Shown here: positions 12,303 to 64,000 of the stretch, one piece after another
Layout: each line of letters starts with the position of its first letter
How positions within the stretch are numbered: position 1 is the first letter of the stretch
Source: an uncultured Pseudomonadota bacterium
GTDB taxonomy: Bacteria; Myxococcota_A; Polyangia; Fen-1088
Reading direction: 5' to 3'
Assembly: GCA_963778795.1 (NCBI GenBank)
Contig: CAVZVU010000006.1
Coordinates: 712,249 to 776,248, forward strand
Length of the DNA stretch: 64,000 bases
Made by a program: the position numbers and the translations under genes
Notes under the pieces: model-generated
Told to the model about the DNA's origin: nothing
What the model saw: only the letters and a program-made list of their open reading frames with translations
Databases searched by the model: none

Positions 12303-14664
12303 GAGGCGCGTGACCCGGACCGCGATTGCCGTCGTGGTGGTCCACGGCGGCAGGGTCTGCAGCAGCGCTTTCACGGCCTCGTCGCGGGCGGGGGCGCGCG
12401 CGATCGCGCGCAGCTCGACGGGCACCGGCGCGCGGCCGTGCACGGTGATGGACAGCTCGGCGCCGTCGGCGGCCAGCCCCTCGAGGTGAACCACGCGCTG
12501 GCCCCACGCCTGCATGGTCGCCTCGGGCGGCGCGCCCAGCGACCAGCCGACAAGGCGCGCGGCGGGGAGGGCGAGGCGCATCTGAGCGCCCGGCGCCGTC
12601 ACGCGCAGGCGCAGCTCGCGGCGGTCGGAGACGACGTCATACGCGTCGGCGATCACCTCGATGCGCGGAGGGTCCAGGTCCTCCGGCGGCGGCGCCGGCC
12701 GCTCGTGCGAGAACGGCGGCAGCCAGGTCTCGAAATGCGGCCATCCCGCGCGGGCGGGCGTGAATCCGGGGACCGAGGAGAGGACCGACTCCAGCCCGAG
12801 CGCGTCGCCCGACCGCAGCAGCAGCGCGCTCCTCGGAACGCCCGACGACTCTTCGGCTGACGATTCTTCGGCGACCTGGGCCACCCGCAGCCGCTTCGGT
12901 CGCTCGGCCGTATACGGGAACCGCACGGCCGTCGCCACGAGCCCGATGACGCCCACGACCACGCACGCGAGGGATGCGCGCCCGAATCCGCCCACGCCGT
13001 GGACGACCGCGGCCGCCAGCACCGCAACGGCGACGGCCACGCCACCGGCCAGCAGAGCGACGGGCGCGTCGAACGGCTGCGGCGCCGGGATCGTGCCGGT
13101 GATGGGCAGGAAATAGCTGAGGAACAGCACGCCGAGCTCGACGGTCACGACGGCGCCAGGGACCACGCTGAGCAGCGCCAGAATGGACCGCGCCCGTGGA
13201 AACAGCAGCGACGCGATCATGCCGGCCGCGGTCGCCCAGACCCAGTGAAGCGGGATGTACCCGACGCCCACCCCGCTGATCGTCGCGGCCGCCAGCCACG
13301 CCGACCAGAAGATCAGGCCGCCGGCCCAAGCTGCGAAGGCGTGCCGTTCGACGTCCGTCCTCCGCAGCGCGCGGCGGCGCCAGGCCGCGTGCACGCCGAA
13401 CACAGCCGCCAGCGCGGGCGCTGCGAACGCCGGCACGACCAGCGCCGGGGCGCTGAACCAGCCGTGCGGGCGGCCGAGCCCGCGGCCCAGCAGCAGGCCC
13501 GCCGCGACGGCGGCGCCGATGCCGGCGACGACCGCGAGCAGGGTCCACGCGAGCGCACCCAGCGCGGACCGCGCCGAGATCTCGCGATCGCCGCGCGCCT
13601 GCGGCCAGCGCGATCGCCGCCAGGACCAGCGCCGCGATGCCCAGCGCCCGACCGGTCTGCGCTTTGTAGGCCACCATCGTCGCGCCGACGAGGTCGTAGT
13701 AGACGACCGGTGCCCGGTCGGCGGCGGTGCGGGCGACCGGGAGCGGTCCGCTCGCCAGCGCGCGGACCACCGCAACCGCGGTGTCGCCCATGTGCTGCAG
13801 GCTCCCGCGCTCGAGCCGCGCCGGGCGGTCGAGCGCGTCGTGGTACGCCCACCCATCGCCGGTCATCGCCACGTCCAGGCCGACGAGGCCCGCTTCATGA
13901 AACGGCGTGAAGTCCCCGTTGTGAGGCAAAAGACCGCTGGCCACGAGATCCTGGCCCACGACGTTGCCGACGGGAATCGGCGCCACCCGCGCGTAGGTCT
14001 CGGCGAGCCATGGGTTGCCTGCGCCGAACAGCCCCGCGCGCCCGCCGGGCAACGCTTCCAGATAAAGATACGCGCGGACATCGCGGGCCCACCGGTGCTT
14101 CAGGAATCCGGCCGCGCCGAACAGGCCCGCCTCCTCGCCGCCGTTCAGGTTCACCACGATCGTGTGCGCGAGCGGCGCCTCGCGCGCCAACACGCGGAGC
14201 GTCTCGACGATGGCCGCCACGCCGGCGGCGTCGTCGGCCGCTCCGACCGAATCCAGCAGGGTGTCGAAGTGCGCGTCCAGGAGGATCGCCTCGGGCGAGC
14301 GGCCCGGCAGGCGCGCCACCACGTTGAGTGTCCGGTAGACGAACGCCGGCAGCACGCTCGACCGATACACCTCGGTGCCCGAGACGTCCTGGATCTCGAC
14401 CTCGAGCCCGGGGATCCGCCGCAGCTCGCTGGCCAGCAACTCGGCCGCCCGCGCGTGCGCCGCCGTTCCGTTGACGCGCTCGCCGAGATCGACGAGCCGC
14501 TGCACGACCTCGCGGGCCCGTCCCTCCGAGAAGCGAGCCGCGGGCGCGTCGAGAGGCAGCGGCGCCGGCGGCCGCAGGGCCCACCACGCCGCGCCGAGGA
14601 CGGCGGCCGCCAGGGCCGCTATCGTGCTCCAGACGGCTGCTGTCTGCGATGGACGGATTCGCAC
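12294..14664 (-). CDS. M28 metallopeptidase with multi-TM C-terminus (ERMP1-like); one frameshift near 13590
   Basis: 'DAHFDT..GAADDAAGV', 'GGEEAGLFG', 'YHDALD' in ORF 12637..14907; the TM region continues in ORF 12294..13856 ('REISARSALGALAW'). Confidence 0.8.
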
Positions 14665-14759
14665 GCAGCTTGGACAGCCGGCGCGCGTCGAGGTTCCCGC
14701 AAAGAGATGCCGGGCAAATCGAGGCCGCGATTCGCCACCTCGTGCGCGGCACCGAACGG

Positions 14760-14819
14760 CGCGGTTCCGCGCTTTGTCCTCGCCGAACGCCCGCCGCCTT
14801 GTGCTTGACGGAGCTTGTA
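14760..14819 (+). repeat. 60-bp dispersed element, copy 1 (copy 2 at 61086-61145)
   Basis: 55/60 identity by manual alignment; ends 31 nt before an HK start. Confidence 0.9.
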
Positions 14820-14850
14820 TTGGCGCCCACCTTCGACTGGTGGGGTCGCA

Positions 14851-17190
14851 ATGTTCGCGGACGTCCTCGAGGGGATGCGGGGAAAGCTGGTCGATGAGCT
14901 CGGCCACCGCTTGGCACGCATCGAGCCTCCGTCACGGCTGACCCCCGACCGCCGCGTGCGCTTGAACCGCGACGTCGCGGAGGTGATCGAGGCGTTACGG
15001 CGCGGCTGCCCCGATGACTTGGCCGAGTCACCGGCGGTCGACGATCCGGAGCGCGAGCTCGACGAGCACGAGCTGGTCGAGCGTCTCCTGCTGGAGCAAG
15101 CCGCGAAGACCGGCGACCGCACGTGCGCGACCGAGGTCGCCATCGCGTGGTGGCGGTGCAGGGCGGATCGCAGTTCCTTGCGCGAGCAGACGCGGCGCCT
15201 GGCGATGCTCCTCGATGAAGTGAAAGACGGCGCCGCGGTCCTCGCTCCGGACGCAAGACTTCTCTACTGCAACCGACGTGTGGCGCAGGGGATTCGCGAG
15301 CTCGCGTGCGTTGGCCACGGCGACATCATCGGCAAGACACCGGACGAGATCGGCCTACCGCTCGAGCACCTCGTCGGTCGTCCGATCGTCGATCTCGAGG
15401 CCCTGGCGCGCGCACGCGCTTCGTTCGAGCTCTGCACCGCCGAGCGCGCCAACGAGACGCAGTTCGACGCCATCTACCGGCCCGATGGCCGGGTGGGCGC
15501 GGTCGCTTTCGTGGTGCGCGACACCCATGGTCTCAGGCAGGAGCGTTTGCGCCTCGACATCCTGTCGAAGCTCTCGGCGCTGGCCGGCGTTCTCGACTAC
15601 GGCGAGGTCGCCGCCAGCATCGCCAACGTGCCGATCCCAGAGCTGGCCGATTGGTGCACGTTCAACGTCGTCGAGAACAAGCGCATCCAGCAGCTCTTCG
15701 TGGCCAATCGTGACCCGTCGAAGAAACCTCTTCGCGACGCGATCCTCAAGGCCTCTCCGCCCTGGGACCGGCACCCTCTCTGGCAGGAGATGCTCACCAG
15801 CGGCTATCAGCTTCTCACCGAGGTGAGCGACAATCTCCTGCGCAGGGTCGCCGGGACCAAGGAGCGATACCGGCTGCTCTCGCTGCTCGGCATCCGTTCC
15901 GTCCTGGTGGTTCCGCTGGTCTCGCAAGCCCGGGTCACGGGTATCCTGTCGCTGATATATACGCACGACTCGGGCCGAAGGTACGGCAGCGGGGACCCGA
16001 TGCTCGCGAAGGAGCTCGCGCTGCACGCCGCGAATGCGCTCGAGAACGCGCGGCTCATGACAGATCTAAAGACGAGCGAGACACGCTTCCGCGTGGCGCT
16101 CGGAGGCGCGCGCACGGTCGTTTTCGAGCAGGACACGTCGCTGCACTACACCTGGTTCTACAACCCGTTCGCGCGAGAGGGGCACGCCGGCGAGACCCCC
16201 GACCATTGGCTCGCGTCCCACGAGGCCGCTGTCACCGCGGCGACGAAGAACCGCGTGCTCGAGCAGGGAGAGAGCATCACCGAAGAGGTCGATGTCACGT
16301 CCGACAAGAACGAGCGGCGCCACTACCGCGAGGCGATCGAGCCGATGCGCGATCGCGCCGGCAAGATCGTCGGCATCATCGGCGCCGCGACCGACATCAC
16401 CGAGCAGCAAGCCATGCAGCAGCGGCTGACCGACGACGTCAGCTTCCGGGAGCGGATGATGGGGGTCCTCGGGCACGATCTGCGCAACCCGCTCAACGCG
16501 ATCACGCTCTCGAGCGACCTCCTGCTGCGGCGCGCCGAGCGTTCCGCGGAGGACCGCAAGCAGCTCGAGCACATCCGCCGCGCGACCGATCGCATGAAGG
16601 AGATGATCGATACGTTGCTCGACTTCACCCGCCTACGCTTCGGCGCGTTTCCCCTGTCGTTCCGCCCGGCCGACCTCGGCGAGATCGCGCGTGGCGTCGT
16701 CGACGAGATCCGCGCCGGCAAGCCCGATCGGCCGATCGAGCTGCGTACACGCGGCCCGCTCCGCGGCGAGTGGGACCCCGCTCGGGTGTCGCAGGCCATC
16801 ACGAACCTCGTGAGCAACGCGCTTGCCTACGGCGAGCCGGAGACGACGGTGAGAGTGGACGTCGACGGGAACGACCGCGATGCGACGATCCGTGTGAACA
16901 ACCTCGGCGCACCGATCCCGCCGGCCTTCATGGCGGTGATCTTCGAGCCGTTCCGCCGCGACGTGCCCCATGACCGCTCGCCCAATGGCCTCGGGCTTGG
17001 CTTGTACATCGTCCAGCAGATCGTGCTCGCCCACGGAGGCGAGATCAACGTCGAGTCAAACTCCCAGGACGGCACGACGTTCACGATTCGCCTGCCGGTG
17101 GCTGCCGCCGGCGCGGCACGGGAGTCCTGCGGGAACGGGCATTGGGCCAGAATGAAGCCAACCGGCGTGGCGTCGGCGGGCCCCGGTTGA
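14851..17190 (+). CDS. PAS/GAF/PAS sensor histidine kinase
   Basis: GAF 'PELADWC', 'SVLVVPL'; PAC 'EPMRDRAGKIVGIIGAATDIT'; H-box 'GHDLRNPL'; 'GLGLGLYI'. Confidence 0.9.
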   Translation: MFADVLEGMRGKLVDELGHRLARIEPPSRLTPDRRVRLNRDVAEVIEALRRGCPDDLAESPAVDDPERELDEHELVERLLLEQAAKTGDRTCATEVAIAWWRCRADRSSLREQTRRLAMLLDEVKDGAAVLAPDARLLYCNRRVAQGIRELACVGHGDIIGKTPDEIGLPLEHLVGRPIVDLEALARARASFELCTAERANETQFDAIYRPDGRVGAVAFVVRDTHGLRQERLRLDILSKLSALAGVLDYGEVAASIANVPIPELADWCTFNVVENKRIQQLFVANRDPSKKPLRDAILKASPPWDRHPLWQEMLTSGYQLLTEVSDNLLRRVAGTKERYRLLSLLGIRSVLVVPLVSQARVTGILSLIYTHDSGRRYGSGDPMLAKELALHAANALENARLMTDLKTSETRFRVALGGARTVVFEQDTSLHYTWFYNPFAREGHAGETPDHWLASHEAAVTAATKNRVLEQGESITEEVDVTSDKNERRHYREAIEPMRDRAGKIVGIIGAATDITEQQAMQQRLTDDVSFRERMMGVLGHDLRNPLNAITLSSDLLLRRAERSAEDRKQLEHIRRATDRMKEMIDTLLDFTRLRFGAFPLSFRPADLGEIARGVVDEIRAGKPDRPIELRTRGPLRGEWDPARVSQAITNLVSNALAYGEPETTVRVDVDGNDRDATIRVNNLGAPIPPAFMAVIFEPFRRDVPHDRSPNGLGLGLYIVQQIVLAHGGEINVESNSQDGTTFTIRLPVAAAGAARESCGNGHWARMKPTGVASAGPG

Positions 17191-19779: not shown

Positions 19780-22670
19780 ATGGTGAAGCGAGCGAGACGA
19801 ACGACCACGACCCTTCGCGCCTCGGGCGCGATGCTCTGGCTGACGGTGGGCACCAGCCTCGCCGGCTGCGGTGGATCATCGAAGCCCAGCGACAAGACGG
19901 CGCTCGATCCGAGCGACTACACGGTGAGCTACCGCAGCGCGGTTAGAGTGCCGAGCGACGGCACCGTGATGAAGGAGCAGGCGTTCGTCGATCAGGTCAG
20001 TCGCCTCGATCCGATCGACGCCAAGCGCTGCCCCGTCAGCAACGACACCTCCTTCCAGGCGGCGGCCGACGCGCTCGGCGGTATCACCTGGACTCACCCG
20101 ATCGCGATCCTCAAGGACCAGTCGCTGCCGCCGCTCTACAAGGGGCGCATCCCGCCGCCCAGCCCCCCGGTCCCGTACGCGGGCGCAACCGCCGGCGCGA
20201 ACGCCGCTGCTCCGACCATCGTGCGTCCCGATCTGGTGGGCTATCAGGACAGCACGGCGATCTTCCTGTCGCAGCGGCACGGCCTCCTCGCCGTGAAGAC
20301 CGACGGCCCCGCGCCCGTGCTGAGCTGCGCGCTCAAGCTGCCCGGCCAGCCCAAGTACTTCTTCTACCGGGGCAGCGAGCTCGTGCTGCTGGTGAACGGC
20401 CTGTCGGTCAACGAGGCCGCGCTGCTGCGCTTCCGCGTGAGCCAGACCGGGTTCGACTTCGTCGACGCGGTCATGCTCGACCAGCAGAGCATCCAGGACG
20501 CGCGCCTGTTCGACAGCACGCTGGTGGTTTACACAAATCTGCTGACGCCGATCCCGCCGGCCACGTCATCGACCGGCACGTCGGGCACCGGCACGACGGG
20601 CACCGGAACCGCGCCCCCCGCGGGGAGCAGCGGCGGCGCGAGCGCCGGTGGCGCGGGCGCCGCCGCCCCGGCGCCGGGCCAGTGGTACAGCCCGAGCACG
20701 GGCGTGGCGGTCACGGCCATCAAGTGGGACGCCGCCCTGACCGTCGCCTGGCATGAGGAGTTCCTCAACGACCCGGCGAGCTCCGATCCGTTCGCTGGCC
20801 GGGATCCGGTCATGGCCGCGACCCAGCTGGCCGTGGGCGACGTGATCTCGACGACGAGGACCTTCAAGCCGTTCATCAGCGCGAGCGACCGCTACGTCGT
20901 CGTGAGCCGCGACGTGAGCCGCACGGTGTTCACGGGCACGCGCACGGAGAGCTACTCGTACTGCGCGACGTCGCACGAGGGCCCGGCGCGATCGGTACGC
21001 TCGTGCGCGCCCAAGTACGAGCAGCGTCCCAACCCCGACTACCGCCCGCCGCAGTCGACCAAGGGCGACTACTCGTGCAACGGCAAGACGCTGCTCGACT
21101 GCATCCAGGAGGCCGCCCCGACGGTCAGCCGGTACATCTACGTCCGCGTCGGCGAGACCTGCTCGACGTACACGTACCACGACTACATCTGCGACCAGTA
21201 CGCGACCAACATCGTCTCGTACCCGACCTACGACTATCGGCAGTCGACCCAGTTCGTGGTCTACCGCTACGACGCCGGCGACTTCGTCAAGCTCGACGAG
21301 CAGATCTACGAGCTGGCCGACCCGGGCGCGGGCGCCGTCAACGTCGATTCACTGACCTTCAGCGGCAAGCCGCTCGAGGTCGCCGGCTCGATCGAGCAGC
21401 AAGGGCGATCTCCAGTTCCAGCAGCGGTCACTTCTACGTCCTCACCAACCAGGGCGAGCAGCTGCACACGCTGCTGCTCGTCGGCAACTCGATCGCCAAG
21501 CTCGGCACGCAGGCCACGCCCAGGCAGCGCAGCGGCTACGGCTCGTACTCGGGCGCGCACTCGACGTTGTTCTCCGCCGACCGGATGATGATCTCGCGCG
21601 CGTACTACGACTACCAGCAGCCGAATCAACATCCCGAACTGGTCCGACGTGATCATGCTCGATCTCACGACGCCGTCCTTCCCAAGGGCGCTGAACCAGT
21701 TCGTGATGCCGGGCTCGAGCGACCAGCTGATCCTGGCCACCGACGGCGTGCTCGGACCGGGGACCGTCGCCTTCACCAGCGGGGGCGTCTCGCGCAACCT
21801 CCAGAAGCTGACCCTGTTCGACCGCGCGACGCCAGCGAGATCGGCAATTTGCTGCTCGGCACCGAGTTCAACGCCGACTTCGTCTCCTCCTGGCTCGGCG
21901 TCGCCGACGATCAGCGCATCCGTCTCGACGGCGACAACCAGCGGCTGTTCCTGCCCTACTCGGGCTATCACCACGCGCCCCAGGACGTGTTCAACCCGGC
22001 CGCGCACCGGCTCAACATCACCGCCGTCGCCAATCGGTTGCTCACCTCGGAGGTGACCTTCGACCTCGTCGAGGACATCGTGCGCACCGTCTCGACCAGC
22101 TCGGCACCCGGCGCGGGGAGCGCGCTCGCGTTCGGCGACTCGTCGGTCTATGCGATCAACCAGACCGTCGATTCTTGGTCGCTGGACGTCATCGAGGAGT
22201 TCGCGACGCCGATCGCCGTCTACCGCATCAGCGACCAGGGCGATCTGCACGCGCGCATCGACCGCGTCGGCGCGCGCTGCCAGATCTCGACCTTCCAGGG
22301 CAGCCTCAACGCCTTCAAGCCCGACCACGTCGCTGTCGGCCCGCAGATCGCGTGCACCGAGTCATCGCAGCCGATCGCCATCGGCCTGTCGGTCGTGTTC
22401 GCCGACGCCCGCACCGGCTGGCAGATCAGCGCGGACGGCCAGGTCATCACCGCGCTCGATGCCGCGGCGGTCGCGGAACGGCAGACCCACATCCGCAACG
22501 ACGAGTACTGCGCCCTCGACGGCACCGTCATGGACGGCACCCCGGTGCCGTACCTCGACGCCGTTCCTGCGTCGATCGTCTGCTTCCCGCCCCCGACCGC
22601 GACCGGCGGCGGGATCGGCGTGGGCGGCGTGGGCGTCGGCATGCCGAGCGGCGGGGCGCTCCGGAACTGA
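19780..22670 (+). CDS. Large lipoprotein with beta-propeller domain; four frameshifts between about 21395 and 21835
   Basis: Lipobox 'SLAGC', RBS GAGGAG. The coding frame passes through ORFs 19735, 21003, 21649 and back to 21003 ('SGHFYVLT', 'VIMLDL', 'RLFLPY'). Confidence 0.7.
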
Positions 22671-24094: not shown

Positions 24095-25114
24095 ATGGTA
24101 AAAGTCTCTCGTTCGACGAATCGTTTCCTGTCGATCGCGTTCATCGTCTGTGGGCTCGGGATGGTTTCGAATCGCGCGTCGGCCGCTCCGGTCGGTACGA
24201 TCTCGACCTTCGGACCGTCGTTGGCGGGGACGGTCTGCGCGAATCCGGAAGGCCTGGCGATGGACACTCAGGGCAACTTCTACACGGCGTCGGACGTTGA
24301 TGGCGTGACCACAGGCACGATCTGCGTGTTCAGCTCCAACGGCACGTTCACGCGGACGATCTCGATCCCGCCGGGCCCGGCCGGCGTCGCTCCGCTGGTC
24401 GGCATGCTCTTCGAGGAGCCCCGCACCCTGTTCGTCGCCGACACCGCCGACGGCAACGCCCCCAACGGTCGCCTGCTGCGCGTCGACATCCCGACCGGAA
24501 GCGTGACCGTGCTCGCGTCAGGCTTCGCGTTCCCGAACGCGATCGCCGAGGACGGCGCAGGGAACCTTTACGTCTCGGATTCGGCGCTGGGGACCATCAA
24601 CCGCATCCGCCAGGACGGGACCCACAACGTCGTGTGGGCGACGAGCCCGCTGTTCCAGACCAGCGGCTTTCCCCCGGTCGGCGTCAACGACCTGGCGTTC
24701 GACCACACCAACAGCAACCTGTATGCCACCAACACCGGTGACAGTCGGATCTTGCGCATCCCCGTCTTGCCGAACGGCAACGCGGGCACGGTGCAGATTT
24801 TCGCCGACGGCGCGACGATCAACGCTCGCCAGAACACGACGGACGCGCTGCACGGCGCCGACGGGTTGGCGATCGACGTCGCCGGAAACTTTTACGTGGC
24901 CGCCAATCAGGTCGGCGAAATCCAGGTCATCTCACCGTCGGGGCGCCTCATCGCGCGCTACGCCGGCTCGGGGGCGGCGACGCTGGACTTCCCCGCGACG
25001 CTGCTCTTCAAGGGCACGCAGCTCTACCTGACCAACGCGTCGTTGTTCGACGACGGCGTGAATTCGCGCATCCTGGTGCTGCAGGCGGCGCTGCCGGGTC
25101 AACCGCTCAACTGA
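24095..25114 (+). CDS. Secreted SMP-30/gluconolactonase/LRE-family beta-propeller protein
   Basis: Signal peptide; 'NPEGLAMD', 'FPNAIAED..GNLYVSDS', 'ADGLAIDVAGNFYVA'. Confidence 0.85.
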   Translation: MVKVSRSTNRFLSIAFIVCGLGMVSNRASAAPVGTISTFGPSLAGTVCANPEGLAMDTQGNFYTASDVDGVTTGTICVFSSNGTFTRTISIPPGPAGVAPLVGMLFEEPRTLFVADTADGNAPNGRLLRVDIPTGSVTVLASGFAFPNAIAEDGAGNLYVSDSALGTINRIRQDGTHNVVWATSPLFQTSGFPPVGVNDLAFDHTNSNLYATNTGDSRILRIPVLPNGNAGTVQIFADGATINARQNTTDALHGADGLAIDVAGNFYVAANQVGEIQVISPSGRLIARYAGSGAATLDFPATLLFKGTQLYLTNASLFDDGVNSRILVLQAALPGQPLN

Positions 25115-57445: not shown

Positions 57446-57877
57446 AATCGCAAGATGTGGTCGAAGGCATTGCACGAGCCGAAGATCGCCGCGGAGGCGC
57501 ATGCGGTAAACAGTGGTGATCCCGACACCAGTTGGCGGGCCACCCGCGAGCGAGTTGTGCCGCGCGAGCGGCGCGCGGGATTCGGGGGGGCTTCGACCAA
57601 CAAGGCGCTCCGCCACCGCCGCCAACCCCGCGCCCGGATCGGTGCCCCTATCCTTCGGCCTCGCTGGAGCGAGCGCATCAGGCGATCGAGATCCTGCGCC
57701 TGTCGATCGGCTTCCCGCTCGAACTGTTGCGAGCGGCGCTGTTCGGCCGCTTCCTCGGCGGCGCGGCGGCGTTCTTGCTCGCCATCCTCGAAGTCGGTCT
57801 TCCGTCCGATGTCACGGCGGACGAACGTGGCGTCTGAACCTGCGTCCTCAAGGGGATCCCGTCGCCGTGCGGCGCTC

Positions 57878-60085
57878 TCAGCGTGCGAGGGGCAGCACGA
57901 AGGTGAACCTGGCGCCGGCGGCGGAGGACTCAGCCCAGATCTTTCCGCCGTGGGCCTCGACGATTCCGTGGGCGATGTAGAGGCCCAGGCCTGATCCGGG
58001 TTGGCTCGTCGACGGGGCCTGCCAGTAGCGCTCGAAGAGGTGGGGGAGTTGGTCGGCGGCAATGCCGGGGCCGGTGTCGGCGACCGCGATCGACAAGTCG
58101 GCGCCGCGGCGTTCCGTGCGGATGGTGATGGTGCCCCCGGCGGGGGTGAACTTGATCGCATTACCGAGCAGGTTCGACAGCACCCGGAAGATCCGCTCGG
58201 GATCGGCTTCCAGCCTCGGCGCATCGATCAACTCCACCGCGAGGGTGAGCTGCTTGGTCTCAGCCAGAGGGGAAACGGACAGCCGAGCCTCCTCGACCAG
58301 CTCACGGCTCTCCACGGATCGGAGGTGCAATGTGAAGCGGTGCGCTTCGATGCTCGCCAGATCCAGGAGGTCGTCGGTCAGGGCCTTCATATGAGCCCCC
58401 AATCTCTGGATGCGCTCGGCGCTGACGCGCAACAGGTTCTTGCTCACCTCATCACCGGCCGCCGTCACGTGCAGGATCACCTCAGCTTGAAGCAGGACAC
58501 CCGACAGGGGACCCCTGAGATCGTGGGACACGACGGCGAGCAGGTCGTCCCGCGCTCGCACTGCCCGCTGCTCGCCCAAGAAGCGCCGCCCGATGTCGAC
58601 TTCGATGGCGCGGCGCCGCAGCTCGTCCGCAGCTTCGAGGGTGCTGGCCGTCCACGGATGTGAACGGAGCTTCACCTCCTCTTGCCAGATCGCGAACGAA
58701 TGACGCGGACGCAGGTGATCGCCGGAATCCGCCGCGAAGGGCTTGTTGGGATCGCCGCCCCAGCTCACCGTCTGGATGAACTCCTGGCGGAACCACAATA
58801 GTCGCCTCTGAGGAGCACCGGGCAGCGCGAACGTGAGCAGCCCACTGGCGACGTCGCTGGCCTCCTGCGCCCGAGGGAATAGGGCGGCCAGCGACGCCGT
58901 GGCGAACGGCCGGGTCCCTTCCTTCTCCTCGACCCACGCCGCGATGTCCTGAACGAGCGCAGGCAGCGGCGTGCGGCCGGCCGCCATGCTCTCCCCGCCG
59001 CTCACAAGCGCCACCCCATCGGCGCCCACCATCCCCATCAGCTCCTTCGGGCGCGAGAGCAGGACCTCGAGCACGTTGTCTTCCGGCGCGCTCTCGCGCA
59101 TCGCGCGGGCCAGCTCATCCTCCGTCGCTCGACGCGAGGCGCGATCGGCGAGCTGGTCGCGGTCCTCGAGCGCTGCGATCTGGAGCGAGGTCAGGCGACC
59201 GAGAAACTCACACGCCATCCGCGTCTCCTGCGAAACCCGCCGCGCGCTGGTGTGGTTCAAGCAGCTGATGAGTCCCCACAGGCGGTCGCGAACGATGAGC
59301 GAGATGCTCATGGAAGCGCGGACCCCCATGTTGGCCATGTACTGGAGGTGAATGGGCGAGACACTGCGCAGAACCGAGAAGCTGAGGTCCAGCGGCCCGC
59401 CCGTGTCGACGCGAAGGGTGGGAACGACTCGCGCTGGCTTCGCGCTGGCATCGAAGATCAGCCGAAGCCAGTTCCTGCGATACAGCTCGCGCGCCTGGGC
59501 AGGGATGTCGGAGGCCGGATAGTGCAGCCCGAGATACGGCTCGAGCGCTGGTTCCTTCGCCTCTCCGTCGACGGAGCCGTGCCCGTCGTCGTGGAATCGA
59601 TAGAACAAGACCCGCTCGAACCCGGTGACTCGCCGCATTTGCTGAACGACAACGTCGGCGAGCTCGGCGGACGTGACCACGCGTTGAATCCGCAGGAGCG
59701 CGGGCCGAAACGGGTGGCGCATCGCGACGGGTGAGCCCGGATTCGGCTCGAGCTCGAGAATGGCCGCTCCCTGGTGGCGGTGGACCATTCCATCGAATTG
59801 TCTTCCGTGCGCGCCGATCTGCAGCGGGTTCACGTCGTACCAGCGCTCCTCGCCCAGGGCCTCCTTCACCTCGGCGACCGACGCCGGATCCAGCACCGTG
59901 GAGAGCTGCCGACCCAGGACCTCATCGACACGAAAGGGGAGAAGGTCGCCGACGTTTTCGCTGACCTGTGTGATGGTCAGCGACGGCTCGGCCAGCACGA
60001 ACAGCACGCCAAAGGGCTGGATCGTCCCCGGGATGTGGATGGGCTCGCGGTCACAATCAGTCAGGTCCGCCCTGGCATCCCTCAT
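57878..60085 (-). CDS. bphP: Bacteriophytochrome histidine kinase (PAS-GAF-PHY-HisKA-HATPase)
   Basis: Chromophore Cys 'DLTDCDREPIHIPG'; 'HYPASDIPAQAR'; 'PIHLQYM'; 'PRHSF'; H-box 'SHDLRGPL'. Confidence 0.95.
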   Translation of the reverse strand: MRDARADLTDCDREPIHIPGTIQPFGVLFVLAEPSLTITQVSENVGDLLPFRVDEVLGRQLSTVLDPASVAEVKEALGEERWYDVNPLQIGAHGRQFDGMVHRHQGAAILELEPNPGSPVAMRHPFRPALLRIQRVVTSAELADVVVQQMRRVTGFERVLFYRFHDDGHGSVDGEAKEPALEPYLGLHYPASDIPAQARELYRRNWLRLIFDASAKPARVVPTLRVDTGGPLDLSFSVLRSVSPIHLQYMANMGVRASMSISLIVRDRLWGLISCLNHTSARRVSQETRMACEFLGRLTSLQIAALEDRDQLADRASRRATEDELARAMRESAPEDNVLEVLLSRPKELMGMVGADGVALVSGGESMAAGRTPLPALVQDIAAWVEEKEGTRPFATASLAALFPRAQEASDVASGLLTFALPGAPQRRLLWFRQEFIQTVSWGGDPNKPFAADSGDHLRPRHSFAIWQEEVKLRSHPWTASTLEAADELRRRAIEVDIGRRFLGEQRAVRARDDLLAVVSHDLRGPLSGVLLQAEVILHVTAAGDEVSKNLLRVSAERIQRLGAHMKALTDDLLDLASIEAHRFTLHLRSVESRELVEEARLSVSPLAETKQLTLAVELIDAPRLEADPERIFRVLSNLLGNAIKFTPAGGTITIRTERRGADLSIAVADTGPGIAADQLPHLFERYWQAPSTSQPGSGLGLYIAHGIVEAHGGKIWAESSAAGARFTFVLPLAR

Positions 60086-60708
60086 CGCTCCACCCATCGC
60101 GCGAAAGCCAGAAAGGTCGCGCGCGCCGAGGCGACGATCTCGGCGGTCGCCAATCCCGCGTGCGCCAGGCCTTCGAGCCAGGCGAGAAAGAGGCTCCACC
60201 TCGCCGACGTCCCCTCCGCTTCGCCGATGAAGAACGAGGCGCCGCTGCCCCTGGCGACCCCGAGCCGCTCGCGCAGCGCAGCGGCGATCACCTGCCCGCC
60301 GAGGCAGGCACCCTCGAGTACGTACAAGCAGCCCGCCAGCTCCTCGGGGCATGACAGCCGCGGCAGATCGGCGCATCGGGGCAGGTCGGCAATCTCCCGC
60401 CGAGACAGGCCGAGCGACAGGAGATCGCTCTCGATCAGCGTGGTGCGGTCTCGCAGCGGTAAACCGAGCGGGGGGCCCGCCGACGCCACGCGCGCCAAAC
60501 TGGCTTCAATGGGCGCATAGAAACCGAAAAAGAATTCGAGCACCCGCCGATAGCGGTCGCGGTCGAGAGAAAGCTCGGATTCGAGCAGCCCCAGATCGAT
60601 CTCGAGACGCCGATGCAGGTCGGCTGTTTCGCGCTTCAACTGCTGTCGCAGCGGCGAAGCGCCCTCCCGGCGCCCATCGGCGGTGGACAAGGGTCGTAGA
60701 TCGGCCAT
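60082..60708 (-). CDS. bphO: Biliverdin-producing heme oxygenase
   Basis: 'LKRETADLHRRLE', 'GCLYVLEGACLGG', 'FF'; ATGA overlap with bphP. Confidence 0.9.
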   Translation of the reverse strand: MADLRPLSTADGRREGASPLRQQLKRETADLHRRLEIDLGLLESELSLDRDRYRRVLEFFFGFYAPIEASLARVASAGPPLGLPLRDRTTLIESDLLSLGLSRREIADLPRCADLPRLSCPEELAGCLYVLEGACLGGQVIAAALRERLGVARGSGASFFIGEAEGTSARWSLFLAWLEGLAHAGLATAEIVASARATFLAFARWVER

Positions 60709-60850: not shown

Positions 60851-61060
60851 TCAATGAAGCGGTGTTGCGGGCTCCACCGGGCTCCAGGCGATGGCAGGTC
60901 TTCGAGGAAGGAGGACACTGAACGTGGTCCCGTCTCGATCGGGTGACTGTACGGCGATCGTGCCTCCGTGCGCGCGCACGATCTGGTTGGCGATGAACAG
61001 GCCCAGCCCGACGCTCGAGCCTCGGTCTCCCGTGCTCGTGAGAACGGATCATCGAATCGG
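60851..61060 (-). pseudogene. Orphan HATPase C-terminal fragment of a histidine kinase
   Basis: 'GLGLFIANQIVRAHGGTIAV..GTTFSVLLPR' read from the reverse strand; a frameshift and no upstream domains. Confidence 0.7.
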
Positions 61061-61085
61061 ACGAACGGCGCTGTCGTCGAGCTGA

Positions 61086-61145
61086 CGCGGTTCCGCGCTT
61101 TGTCCTCACCGAACGCCCGCCACCTTCTGCTTGACGGAGGGTGTA
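61086..61145 (+). repeat. 60-bp dispersed element, copy 2 (copy 1 at 14760-14819)
   Basis: 55/60 identity; ends 52 nt before an HK start. Confidence 0.9.
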
Positions 61146-61197
61146 CCAAGCCCAGGTTCGAATTGAAGGGGCTCGCGCCCGGATAGGCTCATTCTGC

Positions 61198-64000
61198 ATG
61201 GCCGACCAGTCCGAACGCCTCGAGCTTCGTGGGGAGGTCGGTGCCCTGATCGGCTCGCGCGACTGGTCGAAGACCCGTCTCGGCCCGCTCGAGACCTGGC
61301 CGAGCAGCCTCAAGACGATGATCGGCGTCATGCTGGGCAGCCGCTTCCCGATGATGCTGGGCTGGGGGCCGGATCTCCTGGAGTTCTACAACGACGCCTA
61401 CATCCCCGTGCTGGGGGTCAAGCACCCCGCCTCGCTCGGCGCTCCGGTGCGCGTCGTCTGGTCGGAGATCTGGAATGTCGTCGGCCCGCTGATGCACAGC
61501 GTGCTGTCGGGTGGCCCCGCGTTGTGGCGCGAGCACGAGCTGCTCTTCATCAACAGCCGCGGCTTCGCGCAGGAGACGTTCCACACGTTCTCGCAGAGCC
61601 CCGTGCCCGGCGACGACGGCAAGGTCGGCGGCGTCCTGCTCACGGTCCAGGAGACGACCGAACAAGTTCAGGGCGAGCGACAGCTGCAGACGCTGCGCGC
61701 GCTCGCCGAGCGAACGGGCGTCGCGAGGACCGCGACGGAGGCCTGCGTCCTCGGCGCCTCGGTCCTCGAAGGCGCCGACGCGGACGTTCCCTTCTCGCTC
61801 GTGTACCTCCTCGGGGACGACGGCACGCCGACGCTCGCCGCCTCGAGCCCGGCGTCCCTCGCGGGGCGCATCGACCTGCGCGCTCCCACCGGCGGGTGGC
61901 CGTTCCACGAGGCGCTGCGCTCCGGTGAGCCCGTCCCCGTCGACGACCTCGCGCGCCGCTTCGGTTCCCTGCCCGGCGGCCGCTACGGCGTCAGGCCCGA
62001 GAGGGCCGTCGTCGTCCCGTTGCTCCGAGACGAGAGAGATCGGTACGGCTTCGTCGTCTTCGGCCTCGCCGCGTGGCGCGCCCCTTCCGAGGGATACCTC
62101 GGCTTCCTCGCGCTCGTCGCGTCGCAGCTCACCTCGGCGATCGCGCGCGCCCGGGCCTCGGAGGAGGAGCGACGCCGCGCCGAGGCCATGGCCGAGCTGG
62201 ACCGCGCCAAGACACTGTTCTTCAGCAACATCAGCCACGAGCTCCGCACGCCGCTGACGCTCATGCTCGGCCCCACGACGGACGCGCTCCGCTCGCCCGC
62301 GCGGACGCTCGAGGGCCACGACCTCGAGATCGTCCACCGCAACGCGCTCCGCCTGCAAAAGCTCGTCGGGAGCCTGCTCGACTTCGCGCGCATCGAGGCG
62401 GGACGCGTCCGCGTGTCGCTCGAGCCCATCCGCCTCGACGCCCTCACCGGGGAGCTGGCCCACGCATTCGACTCGGCGATGCGCGAGGCCGGCCTCGCGT
62501 ACGAGGTCAGCTGCGAGCCGCTGCCGCACCCCGTCCTGATCGATCCGGACATGTGGGAGAAGATCCTGCTGAACCTGATCTCGAACGCCCTGAAGTTCAC
62601 CTTCGAGGGGAAGGTGCGCGTGTCGCTGGCCGCTCGCGGCGGGCAGCTCGAGCTCGAGGTCGCCGACACGGGCATCGGGATCCCCGCGCACGAGCTGCCG
62701 CACGTCTTCGACCGATTCCACCGCGTCGCCGGCGCGCGGGCGCGCACGCAAGAAGGGTCCGGCATCGGGCTCGCGCTGGTGCACGAGCTCGCGCGACTGC
62801 TGGGCGGCGACGTCTCGGCGAAGAGCGCCGTGGACGTGGGCACGACGATGACAGTCGTCATTCCAGCGCGCACGGCCGACGCGTCCTCCGCCGCTTCGTC
62901 GGACGCTTCGCCGAGGCTCCCGTCGCCGCGCCGGTCGCCACGCACGTGGCGGACAACCGGTTCGTCGAGGAGGCGCGCCGCTGGCTGCCGAACGCGGACG
63001 CCACTTCGACGTCGACCGCTGCGGCGTCCCGCGCCCCGCTGCTGATCGACGGCGTCGAGCGGCCGGCGCGCGTCCTGGTCGTGGACGACAACGCCGACAT
63101 GCGGGAGTACCTGACGCGCATGCTCGCCCCGCACTGGACGGTGGAGACGGCCGTCGACGGCGAGGCCGCCCTCACGTCAATCCGCGCGCGGCGCCCCGAC
63201 GTGGTCCTCACGGACGTGATGATGCCGAACCTCGACGGATTCGGGCTGGTCGCGCGCTTGCGCGCGAACGAGGCGACGGCCGACCTCCCCGTGATCGTGC
63301 TGTCCGCGCGCGCCGGGGAGGAGTCGCGCATCGAGGGGCTGCAGGTCGGCGCCGACGACTATCTCGTCAAGCCGTTCTCCGCGCGCGAGCTGGTCGCGCG
63401 CGTGCAGGTGCACGTCTCGCTCGCCCAGCTCCGCCGCAGGCTGCTCGATCGCGCCGAGGAGGCGCGGCGCGCGGCCGAGGACGCCACGCGCGCCAAGGAC
63501 GAGTTCCTGGCCATGCTGGGCCACGAGCTGCGAAACCCCTTGTCGCCCATCGTGATGGCCGTCGAGCTGATGCATCGGCGCGGCGTGAACTCGAAGGAGC
63601 TGTCGGTCATCGAGCGCCAGCTCAAGCAGCTCATGCGGCTGGTCGACGACCTGCTCGACGTATCGAGGATCACGCGCGGGAAGGTCGAGCTCCACAAGGA
63701 GCGCACGTCGATCGCCGAGGTCGTCAGACGCGCCGCCGAGACCACGCAGCCGCTCTTTCAGCAGAGGCAGCAGCCGCTCGCGCTGGACGTCCCCGGCGAT
63801 CTCTTCGTCGATGGCGACCCCACACGGCTGCAGCAGGTGTTCGCGAACCTGCTGACGAACGCCTCGAAGTACAGCGATCCGGGCACGGGCGTCGGCGTCT
63901 CTGCGAAGCCCGTGGGAGATCGCGTCGAGATCCGCGTTCGCGACCACGGGATCGGCATCCGCCCGGAGATGATCGAGCGCGTGTTCGATCTGTTCGTGCA
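61198..64000 (+). CDS. Hybrid kinase (PAS-like, GAF, HK1, REC, HK2), frameshift near 62908, truncated by the window end
   Basis: 'SHELRTPL', 'NALKFT', 'GSGIGL'; after the shift 'VLVVDDNADMREY', 'TDVMMP', 'KPFS', second H-box 'GHELRNPL'. Confidence 0.85.

Follow-up and report, generated by a model that had tools for sequence, protein, structure and literature searches.

Why do two sensor kinase genes that lie 46 kb apart, and that resemble each other in their kinase core only, begin behind almost the same 60 bp of non-coding DNA? The question arises in a 64-kb window, the whole stretch of DNA analysed here, on contig C6 of a bacterial genome (G000; 8.53 Mb, 7 contigs, 69% GC) that has a sister species in the same genus (G001). 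The answer is probably a composite one, in which the 3′ third of the repeated element would belong to a promoter-like block shared by both genes and the 5′ two-thirds would be a young conversion patch laid over a relic junction. The gene behind the first copy of the element is here called HK1 and the gene behind the second copy HK2.

An earlier note on this DNA had described a near-duplicate element of 60 bp, and the two copies are indeed identical at 55 of 60 positions (copy 1, 14760-14819; copy 2, 61086-61145; window coordinates). The two copies differ at 3 of the first 54 positions, a degree of similarity that arose in none of 100 dinucleotide shuffles. Both copies carry the reported CGCGG-TT-CCGCG inverted repeat and a TTGACG (14805-14810 and 61131-61136), and both sit in divergent intergenic regions with a gap of 31 nt and 52 nt to the ATG of the kinase gene (14851 and 61198). 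Weaker homology between the copies runs on in the 3′ direction to about 14847 and 61173, and the unit is therefore longer than 60 nt. On the 5′ side copy 1 has about 32 nt of extra homology (14728-14759), only against the HK2 locus of G001. The count of copies and downstream genes that the note had called for gives two copies in G000 and one in G001, followed by HK1 and HK2. BLAST, a regular expression with <=5 mismatches and nhmmer find only these two in the whole 8.53-Mb assembly, and regular expression, nhmmer profile and Infernal sequence model detect no further full copy genome-wide beyond the two kinase loci; a genome-wide regulon or repeat family was rejected on the same searches. Among 60 related genomes the element occurs only in G001, once, upstream of the HK2 orthologue. 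A 19-mer scan of 185,579 species genomes returned G001 and two actinobacterial chance matches, and the same scan of JGI metagenomes three chance matches with no flanking similarity.

The genes around the two copies are these:

12637-14664, minus strand: M28 peptidase gene (Pfam), divergent from HK1, a neighbour specific to G000
14851-17190, plus strand: HK1, a PAS-GAF-PAS-HisKA-HATPase_c sensor kinase of 779 aa (Pfam; orthologues 78-88% identical)
57878-60708, minus strand: bphO (heme oxygenase)-bphP (bacteriophytochrome histidine kinase) operon, beyond the relic and beside HK2
60851-61048, minus strand: histidine kinase relic, the last 65 codons from G2 box to stop (HATPase_c positions 66-110, Pfam E = 1.4e-8)
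61198-63045, plus strand: HK2, the N-terminal 615-codon ORF of a hybrid kinase (Pfam, orthologue lengths and an indel map against G001)

The flanking genes are as unrelated as the note had stated. The HK1 and HK2 proteins share 27% identity, in the kinase core only (BLASTP). The first 80 coding nt of the two genes are not significantly similar, since 69 of 500 shuffles score as well, and a duplication reaching into the first codons is rejected for this reason. A gene cassette with a conserved 3′ site is rejected too: no homology is found past the 3′ end of HK1, where similarity stops inside the C-terminal tail, and there is no shared 3′ block. Orthologues of HK2 in G001 and in metagenomes are 1124-1133 aa long, and the HK2 frame of G000 breaks at 62895-62940. 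The break is a cluster of indels, +8 nt in sum, in the linker that follows the first kinase core, and it separates the 615-codon ORF from a second frame carrying REC-HisKA-HATPase-REC. It may be a real split, a pseudogene or a long-read consensus error. The kinase relic lies directly upstream of bphO and just upstream of copy 2. It has no close full-length parent in G000 or in the fetched segments of G001 and G004 (best match 58% over 38 aa) and is therefore the mark of an old junction, made by deletion or rearrangement, upstream of copy 2. The M28 peptidase gene has no DNA counterpart in G001-G004. In G001 the bphO-bphP pair lies about 5 kb away on the other side of HK2; linkage is kept and the order rearranged. 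Aligned with some 190 kb of G001 sequence from the surroundings of HK1 and HK2, the whole window matches only in single genes or blocks of 2-3 kb, at 84-98% identity and in a different order. Gene order is very poorly conserved between these two genomes of one genus, and HK1 and HK2 are each found in four or more neighbourhoods across relatives.

These changing neighbourhoods show which part of the upstream DNA stays with the kinases. Metagenomic orthologues of HK1 are 88% (L083), 83% (L084 and L085), 81% (L086) and 78% (L087) identical at the amino acid level. Those of HK2 are 91% (L088 and L089) and 87% (L090) identical, and the HK2 protein of G001 is 96% identical. The gene upstream of HK1 is an M28 peptidase gene, an unknown gene, a phhA-like gene or a Phenol_MetA_deg gene, depending on the genome. 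Upstream of HK2 lie the kinase relic with bphO, an integrative-element remnant, an MFS gene, a 164-aa ORF or a LysR gene. Whatever the upstream gene, conservation starts at or just before the -35 hexamer. In L088 just 9 nt separate the conserved block from the start codon of a divergently transcribed MFS gene. The HK1 orthologues of G001 and G004 lie behind the phhA-like gene and keep only the 3′ part of the element, CGCCCG(C)CACCTTCTGCTTGACGGAG, together with the sequence downstream; BLAST synteny with these two genomes starts at 14788 and ends inside the C-terminal tail of HK1. At HK2, G000 and G001 are alike from GACGCGGTTCC onwards, where the element has its 5′ end, and differ throughout the DNA that precedes it.

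The conserved DNA in front of the two genes is laid out as follows:

14796-14847, plus strand: HK1-native promoter-like block, conserved upstream of seven HK1 orthologues in four contexts; -35 TTGACG at 14805-14810, a 17-nt spacer, -10-like CACCTT at 14828-14833 and TTCG at 14832-14835
14842-14845, plus strand: Shine-Dalgarno GGGG of the HK1 block, 5-6 nt before the ATG
61122-61173, plus strand: HK2 promoter-like block, 45/51 identical to G001, 40/51 to L089 and 38/51 to L088; -35 TTGACG at 61131-61136, a 16-nt spacer, -10-like CAGGTT at 61153-61158, TTCGAA at 61157-61162 and GGGG at 61168-61171

The block is found upstream of seven HK1 orthologues and of four of the five HK2 orthologues from different genomes and metagenomes, L090 being the exception. 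Its consensus reads gCCaCCTT(C/G)TGCTTGACGGAG..GT..CCAAGCCCAG(G/C)TTCG(A/G)A.T...GGGG, in which GCTTGACGG is invariant in all ten aligned sequences and the CCA..TTCG..GGG motif nearly so. The HK1 block is identical to that of L083 HK1 at 40 of 51 positions and to the HK2 upstream region of G001 at 30 of 51. Between the two gene types, identity reaches 39/51 (L086 HK1 against G000 HK2). A sequence-only Infernal model of the block, run on 41 related genomes, gives matches at E <=1e-11 in G000, G001 and G004 only, all of them in front of HK1 or HK2; the next best match (E = 8e-5) lies inside a coding gene. HK1 and HK2 each carry their own copy of an old homologous block of about 55 nt, a putative control region. 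Of this block the 60-mer includes no more than the first ~24 nt, its other 36 nt lying further upstream, and the block extends about 35 nt past the repeat.

The arrangement of its motifs suggests a putative sigma-70-type promoter/operator region of both kinases, with a strong -35 and a weak -10. TTGACG, which agrees with TTGACA at five of six positions, is the same in all ten upstream regions of HK1 and HK2 that were aligned. It is followed after 16-17 nt by CA(G/C)(G/C)TT, again in all ten, with A2 and T6 conserved. These are the two most informative positions of a -10 hexamer. The earlier note had seen no good shared -10 after TTGACG; the shared hexamer at this distance is a weak candidate. 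A consensus promoter scan returned 0 sites at either copy because the -10 matches TATAAT at only two of six positions. Transcription is predicted to start near 14840 for HK1 and near 61165 for HK2. An imperfect dyad, GCTTG...CAAGC, spans the -35 and the spacer, the spacer GT..CCAAGCC is conserved, and TTCGAA surrounds the -10. This combination suggests that a putative regulator binds there besides RNA polymerase. The conservation of the spacer goes beyond RNA polymerase contacts, and the label promoter may therefore be incomplete. The portable promoter or operator cassette of the note survives for the 3′ third of the element and some 35 nt beyond it, a block that travels with both kinases, and falls away for the remainder. 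There is no sign that the promoter is mobile on its own; it and the genes travel as one.

The remaining 5′ part of the element behaves differently from the block, and three stretches of upstream DNA are needed to describe it:

14728-14759, plus strand: copy 1 tail, a diverged small-ORF relic, 23/31 identical to the G001 HK2 upstream region and 24/32 to L083; a 1-nt indel breaks the frame
14760-14795, plus strand: copy 1 36-nt patch, CGCGGTTCCGCGCTTTGTCCTCGCCGAACGCCCGCC, of HK2 type; 36/36 identical to the G001 HK2 upstream region, 35/36 to copy 2 and 28/36 to L083 HK1
61086-61121, plus strand: copy 2 36-nt patch at its native HK2 locus, 35/36 identical to the G001 HK2 upstream region

Compared segment by segment, the upstream regions give these identities:

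Copy 1 and G001 HK2: tail (14728-14759) 23/31, patch (14760-14795) 36/36, promoter (14796-14847) 30/51
Copy 1 and its orthologue L083 HK1: tail 24/32, patch 28/36, promoter 40/51
L083 HK1 and G001 HK2: tail 24/31, patch 28/36, promoter 35/50

Copy 1 is thus a mosaic. Against G001 HK2 it has 0 mismatches in the 36 positions of the patch and 29 in the 82 positions of the flanks, which are 59-74% identical (Fisher p = 4.7e-6). The observed features are those of interlocus gene conversion: an identical segment, homologous flanks that are more diverged, and an orthologue in L083 that is unconverted (28/36). Copy 1 differs from the HK2 type at two places 3′ of the patch, CCGCC and TTGTG. Both are common to L083, L084 and L086, and they are therefore native to HK1. 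Taken together, these identities argue for a recent short-patch gene conversion with the HK2 locus as probable donor and the HK1 locus as probable recipient. The recombination scar that the note had listed as one option accordingly fits the 5′ 36 nt, which look like a recent conversion patch, and not the rest of the element.

Selection is an alternative to conversion. Purifying selection, if strong and confined to the patch of G000 and G001, would produce the same identity pattern, and it is rated below conversion because the patch decays everywhere else. It is absent or unrecognisable upstream of the HK2 orthologues L088, L089 and L090, whose proteins are 87-91% identical, and it is not conserved upstream of the HK1 orthologues of G001, G004, L084 and L086. 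In L083 it has drifted to 28/36 and the CGCGG-TT-CCGCG inverted repeat is lost. A tract of 36-40 nt with poorly matching flanks is short for RecA-type recombination.

What lay under the patch is indicated by G001. There the element supplies the final 15 codons of an intact ORF of 57 codons, which begins with GTG, ends in AVPRFVLAERPPPSA before a TGA stop inside TTGACG and has a third-position GC of 0.90-0.97. Its first 37 residues place it in a family of small ORFs that recurs in six integrative-element modules of G000. Homology to the family stops about 20-27 nt before the element, which therefore occupies an old boundary, with a mobile-element relic on one side and the HK2 promoter on the other. 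In G000 a frameshift disrupts the ORF at copy 1, at copy 2 it is cut short by the loss of the tail, and neither copy can encode the peptide; the translated tail reads AAIRHLVRG at copy 1 and RAILDLMRG in G001. The coding remnant that the note had left open is therefore right in part: the frame ends an intact ORF in G001 and is broken at both loci of G000.

The region just upstream of copy 2 also seems to hold a trace of the copy 1 tail:

61062-61071, plus strand: 10-mer CGAACGGCGC, identical to 14753-14762 and lying 14 nt (61072-61085) before the patch

As the note had pointed out, the 10-mer precedes both copies, which amounts to a 17-nt insert in copy 2. The chance of such a 10-mer within ~40 nt is roughly 2e-4, an estimate from base-composition arithmetic. 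Upstream of copy 2 it may be the point where a conversion tract ended, or a short insertion copied from a template. The 14 nt between the 10-mer and copy 2, TGTCGTCGAGCTGA, resemble the tail of G001 (TCGA-C-GA), and copy 2 seems to hold both the HK1-type and the HK2-type version of the tail.

The six modules that carry the small-ORF family are arranged in tandem and in the same orientation at 798,965-828,800 of contig C6, which is 23-52 kb beyond the right end of the window. Each consists of a tRNA-3′-end-like fragment TGGAGGCGCCGGGAGTCGAAC, a spacer of ~130 nt, a GTAGCAA-N-GTAGCAAG direct repeat and an ORF of ~55 aa from an unknown family. The tRNA-end-like fragment is missing from the module at 811,901, and a further fragment lies at C6:840,325. 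Three of the six modules (at 799, 817 and 828 kb) end with an HTH_17 excisionase-like gene. No tyrosine integrase (PF00589) is found on the whole 1.48-Mb contig C6, and no intact tRNA at the module array. The array looks like a pile-up of integrative-element remnants. Within the window, 57805-57843 on the plus strand gives a short match (nhmmer E = 0.02) to the small-ORF tail of the modules, ATGTCACG..GCGGACGAACGTGGCGTCTGA, exactly between an AAA-ATPase/S8-protease pair and the end of bphP. It may be another remnant marking a mosaic junction. The att site of the tRNA-linked modules was considered as a source of the element and rejected, the fragment TGGAGGCGCCGGGAGTCGAAC and the small-ORF tails being unrelated to it and an nhmmer profile of the modules missing both copies.

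A history that would account for these observations starts at HK2 in the ancestor that G000 and G001 share, where the 36 nt, with the ~32 nt that precede them at copy 1, would have formed the junction between promoter and small-ORF relic. In an ancestor of G000 and L083, an HK2-type upstream segment comprising relic, patch and promoter would have been placed in front of HK1, presumably by ectopic recombination anchored in the shared promoter, and would then have diverged. Later, in the line leading to G000, a patch of 36-40 nt in the HK1 copy would have been overwritten once more from HK2 by short-patch conversion, giving the present near-identity. L083 is a metagenome contig of 4.8 kb, and the order of events therefore rests on few sequences. 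The repeat can be explained by ordinary processes, promoter sharing and ectopic conversion of a known kind, and no new class of element is needed.

Other accounts treat the element as a unit in its own right. The whole core of 54-60 nt, inverted repeat included, could be an operator or upstream activating site through which one factor co-regulates HK1 and HK2, with selection keeping the copies identical. This account is unlikely: a site under such selection sits poorly with the loss of the 5′ 36 nt at the L088, L089 and L090 HK2 loci and at the G001, G004, L084 and L086 HK1 loci, with the 28/36 and the vanished inverted repeat of L083, and with the lack of any further genomic copy and hence of a visible regulon. 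It does draw strength from the scarcity of substitutions, just 3 among three copies (two in G000, one in G001), and from the HK2 locus, where the core of G000 and G001 (53/54) is more alike than the 5′ UTR (about 49/58, by eye) and the coding sequence (94.9%). Rearrangement breakpoints in three comparisons moreover cluster at most about 30 nt upstream of the core, as they would at the edge of a functional unit. The inverted repeat itself, 5 bp of G and C only, is weak evidence in a genome of 69% GC.

A related and equally doubtful proposal shifts attention from the core to the block of ~55 nt. The block would be the promoter/operator of a putative regulator that controls exactly two orphan kinases across the genus (uncultured, probably myxobacterial soil bacteria), and recurrent short-patch conversion would keep the two copies in step, a case of concerted evolution under selection for co-expression. 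The patch of G000 would then be the latest conversion, and the match between the L086 HK1 block and the HK2 block (39/51) an older one.

That the copies are attL/attR-like ends of an island of ~46 kb, or a promoter-bearing miniature element of the REP, MITE or Correia kind, is very improbable. They are direct repeats 46 kb apart, integrative-element remnants adjoin the G001 copy, and the possible remnant at 57805-57843 lies between them. Against this, the 1.48-Mb contig has no tyrosine integrase, and the integrative modules use a different att, the tRNA-3′-end-like fragment. The 46-kb interval is not one island but a mosaic of segments that are scattered in G001; the full element is present once in G001, and L083 has a diverged copy in a different context. 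There are two copies only, with no terminal inverted repeats and no target-site duplication. Neither a known REP or MITE end nor a common coding sequence, which the note had named as findings that would speak against its reading, accounts for the element. Its 3′ half does match prfC (RF3) of another genus at 25 of 26 positions (L005, G012:C29, 1501-1526; GSVKQKAAGR on the minus strand). An origin from prfC was rejected: the gene of G000 itself reads GCCTGCTTGACCGAGCC there, nothing matches beyond the 26 nt, and the match was judged to be due to chance.

It is highly improbable that the element is still translated as the C-terminus of a small protein, ending in AVPRFVLAERPPPSA, upstream of each kinase. 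The intact ORF of G001, with its GTG start and GC-rich third positions, and the membership of its first 37 residues in the module family speak for it. Against it, the frame is shifted at copy 1 by the 1-nt indel, and at copy 2 it runs for ~30 codons without a start codon. The tails of the family members differ completely from the element. Of the three substitutions among the copies, one is synonymous and two change the amino acid, and in G001 and G004 the 3′ half is non-coding, with a 1-nt indel, downstream of phhA.

The cis-regulatory RNA suggested in the note, be it a leader, something riboswitch-like or a small terminator followed by a promoter, can hardly be upheld. In its favour, the element lies upstream of two signalling genes, a GCGCG-GTTC-CGCGC hairpin with CTTTG behind it is possible in copy 1, and around TTGA copy 2 could pair into a hairpin of 9 bp. 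Against it, the latter hairpin is broken in copy 1 and in G001 when base pairs are checked on the sequences, Rfam matches up to E 10 are only noise (the best overlapping one, to a miRNA model, reaches 15.5 bits where the gathering score is 90), neither strand folds with unusual stability (z-scores -1.3 to +0.8), RNAalifold finds 0 consensus pairs in a 10-sequence alignment, no terminator-like site is found, and most of the element would not be transcribed with the kinase if TTGACG is a -35.

The composite reading, a shared promoter-like block with a conversion patch beside it, can be set against known systems. Ectopic (interlocus) conversion and concerted evolution of dispersed repeats occur in bacteria, for example between tufA and tufB in Salmonella. 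As in that type of conversion, a short segment is identical, the flanks are much more diverged, and the orthologue of a relative shows the state before conversion. Unlike tufA/tufB, the substrate here is not a gene but a non-coding upstream region of ~120 nt, the tract measures 36-40 nt, and flanking identity is low. With so short a tract and such flanks, the mechanism may therefore be template switching and not classical RecA-mediated conversion. Correia, ERIC and REPIN elements form families of tens to hundreds of copies, bounded by terminal inverted repeats and accompanied by target duplications. The present element resembles them as a short non-coding repeat upstream of genes that is able to supply a -35 and a -10, and differs in having two copies, no terminal inverted repeats and no target duplications. 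With operator-bearing sigma-70 promoters (MerR-, LysR- or repressor-controlled) the block shares a conserved spacer, conserved surroundings of the -10 and an imperfect dyad. In contrast to regulon promoters, it has no regulator gene conserved nearby and belongs to a set of only two members, and its spacer of 16-17 nt is shorter than the 19-20 nt typical of MerR-type promoters.

A close parallel is with putative mobile promoters (PMPs), a case of promoter reuse and propagation in prokaryotes (Matus-Garcia, Nijveen and van Passel, NAR 2012; Nijveen et al., Mob Genet Elements 2012, PMC3575422). Pairs with a mean identity of 92% make up most PMP families, and the cause of this identity, selection or recent duplication, is left open there (PMC3575422). 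Like them, the present pair is 92% identical (55/60) over at least 50 nt, lies in front of non-paralogous genes and includes the -35, and it has no link to a known IS, RNA family or repeat family. In identity and non-paralogy the two copies would pass as PMPs. The PMP screen covers -150 to -50 relative to translation starts (PMC3575422). Copy 2, at -112 to -53, lies within these limits; copy 1, at -91 to -32, has 42 nt inside and falls short. Unlike the PMPs, the pair is resolved by its relatives into two layers, an old promoter block that is shared across species and a young patch of 36 nt.

A highly similar promoter pair before unrelated genes can thus arise without a mobile element, and an old shared promoter provides enough homology for two loci to exchange the adjacent sequence. 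The boundaries of a repeat need not be those of a functional unit; here the block starts inside the repeat and extends 35 nt beyond it. The two orphan PAS/GAF kinases are predicted to be co-expressed from their near-identical promoters. Elsewhere in the window, ARAGORN run on the contig reports two unusually long tRNA genes on the minus strand, a tRNA-Ala(cgc) of 91 nt at 20587-20677 and a tRNA-Val(gac) of 94 nt at 24625-24718, which may be false positives or contain introns.
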